A stretch of DNA of 64,000 nt from Gammaproteobacteria bacterium (GCA_013287505.1 JABDDR010000001.1:17931-81930); one strand, 5' to 3'. Shown: positions 42,868-48,741, counted from the stretch's first letter. Numbers and translations are program-made. The notes: generated from the letters alone by a model not told the origin.

Positions 42868-42942
42868 TCCCCGGTAGCTCAGTGGTAGAGCAGGTGACTG
42901 TTAATCACTTGGTCGCTGGTTCGAGTCCGGCCCGGGGAGCCA
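42868..42942 (+). tRNA. tRNA-Asn (anticodon GTT), CCA encoded
   Basis: TCCCCGGTAGCTCAGTGGTAGAGCAGGTGACTGTTAATCACTTGGTCGCTGGTTCGAGTCCGGCCCGGGGAGCCA. Confidence 0.92.
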
Positions 42943-43263
42943 GAATAAACTTTTAAATCAAGATGTTACAGATCACTTCACCTCACTTTATTTTTCCTAA
43001 ACAGCGCATTGTGTCATATTTGTGACATGAATTCGCGTAGCAGCTTCTTTTAAGTGATTACCTGTTTATTTTTAAAAGTAAAAACATAGACAGGGTGATT
43101 TCCCATTTGCTTTTTAAGAATGCTGATTGCATTAAATTCTGATTGGGGAATTATTCGGATTGCCAACACTGGTGATGCAATTATTTTGGGGACAGTGGTT
43201 GAACACAGGGCATATTATTGAAGTCATTTAACCGGTACACTGTCCATCAAAATATTTTTATTG

Positions 43264-43550
43264 TTATTTGATCGACTGCAGCACCGCCGAAAAATACTTC
43301 GGTGGCTCCGGGCGATCAAACCACGCTAAAACCAATGATATATTTAATGTTTTTGCATGATTTAGAATAATGAGCTCTTCATTTTCAACATAAGGTTTTG
43401 CAAATTCCTTGGCAAGCGTTGTATAGCCAATACCATTTGCAACCATCAAAGCTAAATTTTCCGTACGATTGACAAAATAACGACTGTGATTTGCCTCATC
43501 AAATAAATCATAATGCTTGAGATAATCAGCGGTGATAAAATCATTAAAAT
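43264..43550 (-). pseudogene. LysR-family regulator, C-terminal substrate-binding fragment
   Basis: Own translation in this frame gives ...DFITADYLKHYDLFDEANHSRYFVNRTENLALMVANGIGYTTLAKEFAKPYVENEELIIL...LAWFDRPEPPKYFSAVLQSIK. There is no HTH domain and no start. Confidence 0.6.
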
Positions 43551-43904
43551 AACAGTCATACCCTTTTTGATTTTCTGATCTGTGATCGGCGAATATCCTG
43601 ATTGTTTAATATCATCATTCGTAAAAAAAACATGTCGTTGCAAAAGATAAGGATTATGTTCGCTTTTTTTCAAAAATTTAGAAGTACTGTCCATAGGAAA
43701 ACGTTGATTAGCATTAAAATTAATCTGGATGTTATTGTAAGTATCAATAGCCGATAGTCCAATGTGAACATGATGGGTGATTTCTAATCGATGCAGTTTT
43801 TGCGAGACGGTATGCATGATAGCATTGAGTTTGTCTTCACCGGCAAATGCGTTACAAGATAAGAATAAAATGGTCAGTAAAAATAATTTATTAGGTAATT
43901 TCAT
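43551..43904 (-). pseudogene. Class A beta-lactamase, N-terminal fragment fused out of frame to the LysR fragment
   Basis: Signal peptide, the active-site context RFPMDSTSKF (SxxK) and YSPITDQKIKKGMTV. The similarity then stops, and no SDN or KTG motifs follow. Confidence 0.6.
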
Positions 43905-44406
43905 ATTGTTTCATTAACAATTGTAGTAATTTTTTAATACTGCTTTCTTTAGTTTCCAGCAACAACTTTTTAGTAAAATATTTTTCATAATGAGTCATTA
44001 CAGTGGGATCATCGTTTACGAAAGGCAAAAATCGTTTTTTTAATTCCCTTGCATGGCCATGATCTGATTTTCCCAAAACACGCAGCAGCATCGCTTCAAA
44101 ACAGGGTTCTGATGTCAATAGATGAATTGAACGTTTCTCAGCTTCTTTTTGAATCTTTGTATTCCAGCAGGTTGTATCGGTGTCGAATACAACGGCAACA
44201 ACATCATATTGTGCATTAAACGTTTGCCGGATAGTCCAATCAATCACATGTTTTGCACCCTTGCCTTGCGCATTTTTAATTTTGATTTGTCGACCATCAT
44301 TGCGCTGCGAAAATAATTGTTTCACATAATTTAAAAATGCAACTTCGCTATACCCCTCGCCTACGATTAATAATGTTTCTTTGGCTTTCCATGTCGACAT
44401 ATTCAT
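43891..44406 (-). CDS. RloB-like (Toprim-like) protein
   Basis: Three RloB-family motifs are present: LLIVGEGYSE, VVAVVFDTD and SEPCFEAMLL. It lies 5 nt downstream of the ATPase gene. Confidence 0.7.
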   Translation of the reverse strand: MNMSTWKAKETLLIVGEGYSEVAFLNYVKQLFSQRNDGRQIKIKNAQGKGAKHVIDWTIRQTFNAQYDVVAVVFDTDTTCWNTKIQKEAEKRSIHLLTSEPCFEAMLLRVLGKSDHGHARELKKRFLPFVNDDPTVMTHYEKYFTKKLLLETKESSIKKLLQLLMKQYEIT

Positions 44407-44411
44407 TCTTC

Positions 44412-45596
44412 TTATAAATTAGGCACGGCGCCATAGTGACCCGCCATATATTTTGCATAAAAATTATCATCACTGCGAATTCCCTCAACGGCATCTAATC
44501 GACATGCAGTACTTTCACACTGATCATTTTTTTGAACCAACATAATTTGAGATTTGTGAACCAGATTTAAAATTTCAGGAGAATGACAGGAAAATAATAA
44601 TTGTGCGTTATGAGGGTTAGTTTTTGGATTAGCAAATAAATCCAAAATAGGCTCAAGCATATGGGGATGCAAATCATTTTCAAGCTCATCGATAATCGCA
44701 ACACCACCGACTGCTAACGTCGACAAGAGTGGTGCAAGTAGAGAAAACGCTGCCTGAGTGCCGCTAGATTCTTCGGAAAAAGGGAGCGTATATTCTTTCT
44801 TATGAGACTTGTGCTTACCATACGCTTGCCAAATTTTTTGTGTGCTGTTTTCAAAATTGACGTCTTTTTCTATTAATTCAATGCCAGATAATCCCAAATC
44901 CCAAGTCGATAATAACTTTTCCATTTGCTGATAACGTATTTTGTTCTCTGCATAATATTTTGCAGCACCCCAGAAAGCTGTAAGCTCACCACCGTAGACA
45001 CGACCGCCATAAATGGACATATTGCTAATCACCGAAAGATGCGCCATGCGCTGCGCCAGCGGTATACCATATTGCGCTGCAGTGGAAATGAGCGAAGCAT
45101 TTTTTCGTACCTTCAATGCTTCTTGTAAATTAAATTCAAAATCCTGAAGTTTAATGGCATAACACTTTTTTGCATCATCCCATTCACGCACAAAAACATA
45201 ACCAAAACGTTCGCGTTTTTGATACAACGCTTCAAACAAAACTAGCTCTTTTGTACAGCGCAATTCATATCGCCACAATTTGCCATCAAGATCAAATAAT
45301 ATGCTAAATTCGGTTGGTTTATCATCAGCAGAAAAATGGGCTGAAATGGGAATCAATGACTCTGGCGAACTTTGAAAGGAAGCGTTAATAAACCAACCCA
45401 AAAATGCTAACGGCTTAAGTAATGCGGTTTTACCACCACCATTTGCACCAAGAACCGCCATTAACTTTGAAACTCGTTCACCGCTACTGGTTTCGCACAT
45501 CCAGTTGGTCAACTCCACCTTTTTGGTGACAGTCAGATCAACTTCTGTGCGTTCCTTAAAAGATTGGAAATTGGTGAAATCGTAGCTATAAATCAT
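44412..45596 (-). CDS. AAA_21/COG1106 ABC-type ATPase (OLD/AriA-like ATPase module)
   Basis: Walker A GANGGGKT, signature-like ESSGTQ, Walker B AIIDELENDLHP, FSCHSP, and the C-terminal GHYGAVP. ATG 45596 is preferred over the TTG at 45626. Confidence 0.8.
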   Translation of the reverse strand: MIYSYDFTNFQSFKERTEVDLTVTKKVELTNWMCETSSGERVSKLMAVLGANGGGKTALLKPLAFLGWFINASFQSSPESLIPISAHFSADDKPTEFSILFDLDGKLWRYELRCTKELVLFEALYQKRERFGYVFVREWDDAKKCYAIKLQDFEFNLQEALKVRKNASLISTAAQYGIPLAQRMAHLSVISNMSIYGGRVYGGELTAFWGAAKYYAENKIRYQQMEKLLSTWDLGLSGIELIEKDVNFENSTQKIWQAYGKHKSHKKEYTLPFSEESSGTQAAFSLLAPLLSTLAVGGVAIIDELENDLHPHMLEPILDLFANPKTNPHNAQLLFSCHSPEILNLVHKSQIMLVQKNDQCESTACRLDAVEGIRSDDNFYAKYMAGHYGAVPNL

Positions 45597-47504: not shown

Positions 47505-47538
47505 GTGTTTTTTACGAGTAAAAACACTACTTTTTTTT
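47505..47538. terminator. Stem-loop plus T-run between the AbiE remnant and the unknown cassette
   Basis: gtgttttttac-ga-gtaaaaacac (47505-47527) is followed by tttttttt (47531-47538) on the plus strand. The A/T-rich stem could act in both directions. Confidence 0.35.
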
Positions 47539-47589
47539 ATCACAATAAATAACGATTGATATTTTTTTCAAAAAGCCAGGTCGCGATTA

Positions 47590-47764
47590 TTTTGTGCGCG
47601 CGCTCCCGCTGATGAATGCATTAATTTGTAGACATACCAAACATACCTAAAAATCTCTTTCCACGTTTTGCAAGGTTGTTCCCAATCGATTGGCGGTTGC
47701 AAAAAAATAAGTCTTGTCGTTCGTGTTGCGCGGATGAGAGGATGCGAATAAATTCTGTATTCAT
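47590..47764 (-). pseudogene. AbiEii-type nucleotidyltransferase toxin, 5' remnant (frameshift plus premature stop plus truncation)
   Basis: The ATG at 47764 is 7 nt after the AbiEi stop. Removing one T from the T7 run gives ...RQDLFFATANRLGTTLQNVERDF*VCLVCLQ, resembling the conserved AbiEii N-terminus (VEKDFWVC) with TAG in place of Trp. Confidence 0.45.
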
Positions 47765-47771
47765 GATGTTC

Positions 47772-48434
47772 CTAATGTTTTTTTTGAGCGCTTAAAAGTA
47801 ATTTTTGTATCCATTTTTGCATCCATATTGGCATAGCGTGCAGTCCATCTCGTAAGTCTTTGCAAATAATGTCACCCTGTTTTGTATCCTGTAAAATGCG
47901 GATCAATTTTTTTTGTATGCTTTTTTGTTCCGCTTCTGAAAGCCCTTTGATTGCGTCATGCAGCCAATAAAGTGCTTGCACGATTCGCATACTGGGGCGT
48001 CCTGCCCAATATAGTTTGCCGGGGGTGGTTAATTTAAATTGAATGGTGAGATTTCCCAATTTTATTGGACGCAAGCGACCATCTGTATGTACCACGACTT
48101 TCCCGAGTACTGCATGCGTTAACCCCAAATCATTCGCAGCAGTTAGTCCATCCATTAATATTCGTATTGAATCACGACGAGCAATGGCGTCGATTACTTT
48201 TTGATAACTTGGTACAGAAAGTTGATCAGTGAGCGTATTGATTTTCGGTTGATCATAAAGCCCGCGACTAATGCGGCGTAATTCATGATGGGTGGTGAGT
48301 CGTTGTAGTGCTTTATCTATTGCATCACGCGTACCCATATCCAGAAAATCTGTCGGAGTCCATACATCCCCGTGATCAGCCTTATGAATGCGTTGCATGA
48401 TAAGTGATTTCAGTGTGGTAGTCATAGCAAACAT
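47772..48434 (-). CDS. AbiEi-family (DUF6088-like) type IV antitoxin/transcriptional regulator
   Basis: WTPTDFLDMGTRDAIDKALQRLTTHHELRRISRGLYD wHTH pattern typical of AbiEi/DUF6088 proteins. Confidence 0.6.
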   Translation of the reverse strand: MFAMTTTLKSLIMQRIHKADHGDVWTPTDFLDMGTRDAIDKALQRLTTHHELRRISRGLYDQPKINTLTDQLSVPSYQKVIDAIARRDSIRILMDGLTAANDLGLTHAVLGKVVVHTDGRLRPIKLGNLTIQFKLTTPGKLYWAGRPSMRIVQALYWLHDAIKGLSEAEQKSIQKKLIRILQDTKQGDIICKDLRDGLHAMPIWMQKWIQKLLLSAQKKH

Positions 48435-48687
48435 GCTTATTATTGTCTTAAATTAGTATACACTTTTCGGACAAAAATACCAAGTTTTTATCGAGGATCG
48501 CTTGATGGAAAATCAGTGTTGCTCGATCCGATCTTTTTAATTGCACTTACTGCTGCTTATCGCACTGTGTCATTATTGTGACGTATTTAGAGATATCTAA
48601 CACTGATTGTGACTGTGATAGACTGTTTTTCACCTTGAATTGCATCGCAAGGCTTTGATTTTTCGTACTTTATACCATGGCGATAGC

Positions 48688-48741
48688 GACTGTTAATCAC
48701 TTGGTCGCAGGTATCGAGTCCGGCCCGGGGAGCCGGAATAA
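48688..48741 (+). repeat. Partial copy of the tRNA-Asn 3' half (att-type direct repeat)
   Basis: gactgttaatcacttggtcgcaggtatcgagtccggcccggggagccggaataa compared with 42896-42948 shows two substitutions and one 1-nt insertion. The match extends 6 nt past the tRNA end. Confidence 0.85.

Follow-up and report, generated by a model that had tools for sequence, protein, structure and literature searches.

The segment at positions 42943–48747 of the DNA analyzed here is, with a probability that we put at roughly 0.8, what is left, fixed and decayed, of two or more members of a single family of small integrative elements, seated at a tRNA-Asn gene. This element family is spread through the Coxiellaceae and reaches other Legionellales. 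The window, i.e. the whole 64-kb stretch, corresponds to contig C1:17931–81930 of a metagenome bin (1.37 Mb in 57 contigs, 67% complete) obtained by assembly of a soil metagenome run, and its host is an uncultured member of the Coxiellaceae (Legionellales). The segment, ~5.8 kb long, lies between an intact tRNA-Asn gene and a copy of that gene's 3' half that carries mutations, and all open reading frames (ORFs) within it that could be assigned to a family are on the minus strand. A first-pass annotation had described a partial tRNA repeat bracketing minus-strand genes of accessory or decayed type, and had proposed that two islands integrated in tandem and then lost the middle attachment (att) site and both integrases. 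The bracketing repeat, the gene content, the composite nature of the island and the loss of the middle site are borne out below; the fate of the integrases and the order of events are revised.

The intact tRNA-Asn(GTT) gene (42868–42942, plus strand; ARAGORN, and Rfam tRNA with 69.4 bits) is taken as the regenerated target and, together with the P' arm described below, forms attL. Its 3' part recurs in direct orientation at 48688–48741 with 94% identity (E 8e-18, within the window), and the similarity extends ~12 nt into the flank, up to 42954 and 48747, respectively. The identity block of attL (the core, 42896–42954, plus strand) begins 2 nt ahead of the anticodon loop, and over the first 21 nt of the core there is no difference between attL and the corresponding attR copy (48688–48747, plus strand). 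Only these two copies were found in the 1.37-Mb assembly. The tRNA part of the distal copy differs by two substitutions and one inserted base, as counted by eye. Because these changes affect the T arm and the CCA end, which they would impair, and because the proximal gene shares 100% identity over 73 nt with the tRNA-Asn of G005, another species of the genus, the distal copy is the displaced, decaying one.

The right end of the segment carries a sequence of 135 nt (48555–48689, plus strand), here called the P arm, which leads into the displaced tRNA half and is present a second time inside the segment (45724–45858, plus strand). A 43-nt similarity between these two places had been noticed earlier, and it turned out to be part of this longer homology: in an alignment of seven arms (A1), there are zero internal gaps across the 135 nt up to the tRNA-derived core. 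In the right-end arm, a box discussed below is followed by two TAGACNGTT-like direct repeats and then by a conserved TGCATCGCAAG...TTGATT block. A hidden Markov model (HMM) trained on the five arm copies outside the window, which come from four other genomes, gave only two significant matches in the whole 1.37-Mb assembly, at 45735–45850 (E 7.9e-24) and 48560–48687 (E 1.2e-16). The composite island was to be given up if the internal similarity proved no better than chance; these values place it far beyond. In a DNA search of 40 relatives, 45735–45844 shared 85% identity with a stretch of G005:C8 lying directly 5' of a partial tRNA-Asn; relatives of the sequence ahead of the partial tRNA in the window itself precede partial tRNA-Thr copies in other genomes. 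From the register of the internal arm, a core would be predicted to start at 45859, compared with the junction guessed earlier at ~45860. Neither a tRNA remnant (Rfam search) nor an integrase relic (HMM of three integrases against six-frame island fragments) was found 3' of the internal arm, and no P' box was found to its right, in agreement with the proposed loss of the middle att site.

A sequence-only covariance model of the arm (R1), which scored 96 bits for the internal and 90 bits for the right-end arm, was run over 64 genomes of the family. Arms were present in 19 of the 64 genomes, including all 8 of the genus, and in 10 of 24 genera. Another 20 arms were then fetched; in 18 of them, the base predicted by the model is the first of a tRNA 3' half beginning in the anticodon loop. 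Since these further arms sit directly before a tRNA half, the internal arm of the window marks a lost junction at ~45859. Pooling the new, training and public-contig arms gave nine anticodon classes (Asn-GTT, Thr-TGT, Thr-CGT, Lys-CTT, Lys-TTT, CAT, Arg-ACG, Arg-TCG and Leu-TAA); BLAST against annotated tRNAs confirmed four, and the others were assigned by eye. When a public collection was scanned for a degenerate arm pattern of 19 nt, 76 loci were obtained, close to the estimate for chance matches, and only ~10 of them were real arms on rescoring. The arm is also present in two further metagenome-assembled genomes (MAGs): 1) in an uncultured Legionella (CAZYME010000004.1, locus L067, 6313–6409), it precedes a tRNA-Arg(ACG) with a C-terminal integrase relic nearby; 2) in another gammaproteobacterium (JAGVKT010000052.1, locus L110), two tandem arms at 1471–1568 and 6251–6358 precede tRNA-Arg(TCG) halves.

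Three other readings of the arm sequence were rejected. As an RNA, it has no Rfam family, no consensus structure (-1.0 kcal/mol) and no covariation. A promoter-like match at 45809–45836 in the internal arm is not kept in the type-B arms defined below. An integron gene-cassette array does not fit, as there is no integrase at the array, the arm lacks a conserved secondary structure and the junctions are tRNA halves.

The second line of evidence comes from short boxes on both sides of the core. The box of the right-end arm (48561–48583) recurs in direct orientation at 43005–43027 (plus strand), within the 3' coding remnant of an integrase, with 19 of 22–23 positions identical; they are the 23-nt motif described earlier just inside both ends, and neither strand of the 64-kb window has a third copy when up to 5 mismatches are allowed. 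The boxes are placed in direct orientation at ~-126 (P arm) and ~+110 (P' arm) from the core start, and the P' box of the window is at +107, as in intact elements. In A1, the right-hand box shares its columns with a different, equally placed box of the other arms. A cross-table of the boxes distinguished three types, with matches within but not between types; the internal arm of the window has a type-A box (45735–45754), and the two outer ends have type-B boxes. Wherever an element could be compared at its two ends, its P and P' boxes match, at 22/22 positions in G006:C9, 18/20 in G002:C11, 16/20 in islet 1 of G002:C8 and 19/22 in the window, with shuffle controls well under these values. The P' box overlaps the last codons of the integrase (YVTNSLH in G006 and HVTNMTQC in the relic of the window). 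Such co-variation at fixed distances is as expected of arm-type integrase sites and supports, at the level of sequence, the suggestion made for the 23-nt motif; the 20–23-nt box is most likely an arm-type integrase binding site. The motif was also considered as an operator of AbiEi, a reading that was dropped as a type-B box is found in an arm (G001:C39) where no AbiEi gene is present.

The island contains no match to PF00589 and no full integrase gene, as had been stated before. That both integrases were lost without trace does not hold, however, since a relic of 130 nt remains next to the tRNA gene (43000–43130, minus strand, in two frames). Its pieces, 43059–43130 and 43000–43065, correspond to aa 149–172 (54% identity) and aa 234–255 (45% identity) of the G002:C11 integrase, respectively; they are collinear, and the catalytic stretch between them has been deleted. 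Searched against the left end (518 nt), tblastn gave E values of 5e-7 and 1e-3, compared with 4e-5 on the island, and with an HMM of three integrases these two pieces were the top two matches among all six-frame fragments of the island. The strand of the relic and its distance from the tRNA equal those of intact homologues, whose integrases match PF00589 with E values of 5.7e-29 and 1.2e-15. The integrase of the family shares ~51% identity with the integrases of P2-like Burkholderia phages (phage AP3, 51%); no integrase of the arm family was found elsewhere in the 67%-complete assembly. Two family integrases, L046:2978–3784 and L051:1375–2421, are 81% identical and are located at tRNA-Thr(CGT) and tRNA-Thr(TGT), respectively, targets that diverge through the greater part of the 3' half, a hint that the family may switch targets easily.

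These features also bear on the view that there is no mobile element here, but a local duplication of the tRNA region with ordinary chromosomal genes in between. Such a view would agree with a base composition that is not atypical and with the lack of a known empty site. It is hardly credible nevertheless, given that the conserved arm precedes the tRNA copy as it precedes tRNA cores at ~30 other loci with nine tRNA types, that an integrase relic adjoins the tRNA, that matched arm boxes are present, and that the cargo consists of defense and toxin-antitoxin genes.

Intact members of the family (G006:C9 and G002:C11) consist of, in order, the tRNA, a minus-strand integrase, cargo, the arm and a partial tRNA. 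In G006:C9, the stop codon of a 349-aa tyrosine integrase lies 22 nt past tRNA-Thr(TGT) on the opposite strand, and the arm and partial tRNA are 17.8 kb from tRNA-Thr; the member in G002:C11 is 4.8 kb and encodes the integrase, a PF00144 hydrolase, AbiEi and AbiEii. Arrays with an intact middle att site are also present: G002:C8 and G003:C45 have them at tRNA-Thr, and G005:C8 has one at tRNA-Asn. Most islets in these arrays are 1.7–10 kb and have no integrase, and the islets of relatives carry a TOTE conflict system, AbiE, Fic with a helix-turn-helix (HTH) protein, RelE with an HTH protein, or MFS transporters. The TOTE islet of G002:C8 (L020, 3970–8882; 5.3 kb, integrase-less, at tRNA-Thr(TGT)) encodes a 936-aa AEP primase-helicase-DUF559 protein and a metallophosphatase; a 935-aa ORF occupies the equivalent position in G003:C45 (L021, 8726–13152). 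No phage structural genes were seen in the family elements (1.7–18 kb). On the 5.3-kb contig G024:C74, the arm, a tRNA-Arg(ACG) core and an integrase are contiguous in attP order (366–1112), which may represent either a junction of a tandem array or an excised, circular form caught by the assembler.

As seen in these relatives, an intact element comprises a gene for a tyrosine integrase of ~350 aa, read towards the tRNA, a few cargo genes, for the most part toxin-antitoxin or anti-phage systems, the 135-nt P arm and the core. Its attP would be formed by the P arm, the core (equal to the part of the tRNA that runs from the anticodon loop through its 3' end) and a P' arm overlapping the 3' end of the integrase gene. 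The integrase would recombine attP with a tRNA gene, such that the element's own 3' half restores the tRNA at attL and the original 3' half of the host is moved to the far end as attR. In the window, repeated integration at tRNA-Asn may have stacked elements head to tail, after which deletions would have removed the integrase genes, except for the 130-nt relic at the left, as well as the middle core and P' arm. The outcome would be an orphan type-A arm (45724–45858) lying within cognate type-B outer ends. The locus is most likely unable to move by itself. Neither a joint skipping the island nor a circle junction was found in the contigs of the source run.

Several observations weigh against a remnant of stacked elements and have to be set beside this evidence. 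The simplest tandem history fails, since the left P' box is not paired with the internal arm: this type-B box scores 16 against the right-end arm and 6, the shuffle level, against the internal type-A arm, and no type-A P' box was found in the 64-kb window. The integrase relic is short, and genome-wide the better piece reaches an E value of only 0.017. There is no composition signal in the island (36.7% GC compared with 39.2% for the genome, with a typical tetranucleotide distance, within the genome's own spread), so that the k-mer and GC profiles suggested as a check gave no help. No empty site was found when the 9-kb locus was compared by DNA search and tblastx with 40 relatives, none of which showed synteny at the tRNA-Asn or at either of the MATE transporter genes flanking the island. 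A metagenome scan with the right MATE protein retrieved 8 loci, at most 81% identical, with no tRNA, arm or synteny. Finally, the locus is known from a metagenome-bin contig, and the graph of Logan contigs of the source run breaks twice within the island, at 43381–43416 and 46195–46226. The only match in exact-protein look-ups for the locus was from the same sample (100% identical). In the lack of a syntenic locus or an empty site, we infer insertion from structure only.

The arrangement of a B-type P' box, an A-type P arm and a B-type P arm cannot be produced by the two-step order proposed earlier, because the two arms of a newcomer always adjoin its own cores, whether it integrates at attL or at attR. 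With outer ends that are matched to one another and an internal arm that lacks a partner, either at least three elements and two deletions, or a homologous exchange of island content, are needed. A three-element stack (B, A, B) with two deletions is the least complicated history; alternatively, the interior may have been replaced by homologous recombination with another array. The tandem proposal thus stands as regards a composite island, with arrays in G002:C8, G003:C45 and G005:C8 that retain the middle att site, and falls as regards two steps.

The same facts could be read as a single type-B element, into which the internal type-A arm and the AbiL genes arrived later by homologous or illegitimate recombination, so that the arm never was part of an att junction at this locus. 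The cognate outer ends, the internal arm without a partner box, the absence of both a core and an integrase relic after that arm, and a middle segment whose borders are formed by sequences with several copies in the genome would all be accommodated. On the other hand, the arm abuts a tRNA half in 18 of the 20 independent copies, and so was once part of some att junction, and arrays of at least three islets are common in relatives, which makes a stack followed by deletions unforced. We therefore regard the single element as unlikely, and it differs from a remnant of stacked elements only in where the junction was lost.

The breaks in the Logan graph raise a further alternative, namely that parts of different islands were spliced together at short repeats during assembly, with the internal arm misplaced as a result. 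The k=31 contigs cover the region as three pieces, and the breaks coincide with exact repeats of 36 nt and 32 nt shared with contigs C46 and C44 of the same bin; of the exact repeats that link the island to the remaining genome, none are longer. However, these repeats are shorter than a read and than usual final k-mers, the three pieces are similar in depth (77.7, 80.4 and 65.2), and the breaks coincide with no att feature. A misjoin of the contig at these sites is unlikely, and an assembly chimera as the source of the internal arm is accordingly given very little weight.

In phages of the P2/186/HP1 type, the int gene is read towards the att core, arm sites occur as direct repeats on both sides, and several of these phages use tRNA targets. 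The family described here resembles their attP in having an integrase homologue (~51% identical to that of phage AP3), in the direction of int and in arm sites flanking the core. It differs in the size of its elements (1.7–18 kb), among which no phage structural genes were seen, and in the use of one arm with nine tRNA cores. Compared with attP of the lambda/P2 type, a recombinase gene beside the core is present in the intact relatives and reduced to the relic in the window, and repeated arm sites on both sides of the core are seen at the sequence level.

Islands in tRNA genes (tDNA islands) form when a tyrosine integrase splits a tRNA gene and restores it, leaving the displaced 3' fragment at the far end, and can build tandem arrays (Williams 2002; Hudson, Lau and Williams 2015, PMC4383910). 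The window island shares with those of the Islander catalogue the split and regenerated tRNA, the displaced fragment, a crossover class centered on the anticodon loop and tandem arrays; an intact tRNA at one end and a fragment in direct orientation at the other are both present. Islander, however, requires an integrase gene of its own for each island or array member (PMC4383910), so that integrase-less loci such as the window island, with its 130-nt relic, are not in that catalogue; most of the related islets likewise have no integrase. Cis-mobilizable elements (CIMEs) have lost integration and transfer genes and kept attL and attR, and accretion followed by deletion has been described for ICEs (integrative and conjugative elements) and IMEs (integrative and mobilizable elements) of Streptococcus (Pavlovic 2004; Bellanger 2011; PMC5704250). 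The window island is similar in that att sites are retained (identity blocks, P arm and P' box) after loss of the integration genes, with no transfer genes left, and in that site-specific accretion together with deletion gives composite structures. Conjugative elements of Firmicutes are the source of CIMEs, which are mobilized with an ICE, whereas the window island, as compared by sequence, has no conjugation genes, a P2-like integrase and a Coxiellaceae host. In the tycheposon islands of Prochlorococcus, elements integrate again and again at one tRNA, and the older ones are thereby pushed inwards (Hackl et al., bioRxiv 10.1101/2020.12.28.424599). Fragmented integrases, scattered partial tRNAs and adaptive or defensive cargo are common to both (bioRxiv 10.1101/2020.12.28.424599), while the integrase family, host lineage and arm sequence differ, and no replication module or genes like those of phage-inducible chromosomal islands (PICIs) were seen in the window. 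The principle is thus already known from tDNA islands, CIMEs and tycheposon remnants. As far as we have searched, the literature does not describe this element family, with one arm used with nine tRNA cores, matched boxes and mostly integrase-less islets of toxin-antitoxin or defense genes.

A searchable signature is provided by the 135-nt arm, by boxes whose distances from the core are fixed, and by a tRNA half with its start in the anticodon loop. This is of use because the Coxiellaceae and Legionellales are largely uncultured and intracellular, their mobile elements are poorly catalogued, and island finders that require an integrase miss such elements. The matching of P and P' boxes within an element also makes a direct prediction on the arm specificity of the integrase. 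A broader, tentative possibility is that the arm and its co-varying box act as a portable recognition module of an undescribed system of miniature islets found throughout the Legionellales (1.7–10 kb), most of which would have complete att sites and one toxin-antitoxin or anti-phage system but no integrase, and would depend for their movement on a few P2-like integrases supplied in trans by rare autonomous members. Since one arm occurs with at least nine different tRNA cores, target switching would then need a change of the core only. Were this so, the window island would be a stack that can still be mobilized rather than dead debris.

The cargo of the island includes genes of two abortive infection (Abi) systems. 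AbiLi, an AAA_21 ATPase (44412–45626, minus strand; PADLOC AbiLi 2.6e-73, PF13304 2.3e-29), and AbiLii, which is RloB-like (43891–44406, minus strand; PF13707 1.4e-11, PADLOC AbiLii 2.4e-11), are encoded on the same strand 5 nt apart, as in an AbiL system, and this two-gene defense module still looks functional. Near the right end, an AbiEi antitoxin/regulator of the DUF6088 type is encoded (47772–48434, minus strand; PADLOC AbiEi 5.9e-91, PF19570 7.4e-34). Directly after abiEi, a short and broken frame (47590–47771, minus strand) is a candidate remnant of the AbiEii toxin gene: its sequence VERDF*VC resembles the N-terminal motif of AbiEii with a stop replacing Trp. Comparison of this frame with two AbiEii proteins from relatives gave nothing significant, and no AbiEii ORF was found. 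Unlike a complete AbiE system, the window copy, assigned as AbiE by its protein matches, has no intact AbiEii partner, and because of this the type IV toxin-antitoxin system is incomplete.

At the left, a pseudogene (43264–43904, minus strand) is a fusion of the N-terminus of a class A beta-lactamase and the last ~95 codons of a LysR-type regulator. The beta-lactamase fragment (43452–43904) retains ~120 of ~290 residues and then runs out of frame; NCBIfam class A models match residues 26–127 only (model positions ~30–128), with the SxxK context kept. The C-terminal LysR fragment (43264–43560) matches positions 132–204 of 209 of PF03466 with an E value of 5e-4, below the cut-off, and shares 86% DNA identity with the 3' end of a full-length paralogue (289 aa) encoded on contig C46 of the same bin (G000:C46:3944–4810). 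The fusion junction may be a deletion scar of the decaying island. For the host genome, the island explains a variable locus and the origin of an apparently intact AbiL-type module, and several neighboring ORFs are marked as pseudogene debris.

To the right of the internal arm, an inverted repeat with 27-nt arms that are 89% complementary (45902–45928 and 46027–46053, 98 nt apart, within a gene-free spacer) is probably a small dispersed repeat and not part of the att machinery; one of its arms has a 24-nt exact match to contig C4 of the bin. It is followed by a cassette of two genes (46153–47512). Gene 1 (46809–47468, minus strand) encodes a 219-aa protein with an 88% identical copy in G004:C25; no match was found in Pfam, PADLOC or NCBIfam, and the protein is DUF3892-like by language-model features only (atlas score 0.93). 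Gene 2 (46153–46797, minus strand) encodes a small secreted protein resembling the PD40/TolB beta-propeller (PF07676 8.4e-8; atlas clusters score 0.97). The cassette is multi-copy in the genus, with 65–88% protein identity, and copies were identified at G000:C8:10641–11910 and 18618–19899 and in G004:C25, G004:C23, G006:C19, G002:C7 and G007:C1; the two copies on contig C8 of the window's own bin lie between two integrase genes.

The island is bracketed by two divergent MATE efflux paralogues, in accordance with the first-pass annotation. The left one belongs to the host flank (41330–42676, minus strand; PF01554 2.1e-50), and the right one is NorM-like (48850–50217, plus strand; PF01554 9.8e-42, NF001214 4.4e-79); their proteins share 28% identity (E 4e-62). 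The left MATE gene has orthologues in 6 genomes of the genus, none of them adjoining tRNA-Asn, and since synteny is kept in no relative, the two genes cannot be shown to be an ancestral adjacent pair. The DNA beyond attR (48742–54500) may itself be variable. The GC content of this right flank is 35.0%, at about the 4th percentile among genome windows, and the best orthologue of the right MATE gene (77–79% identity) is found in G001:C14 in an unrelated context, ~10 kb from a weak integrase match.

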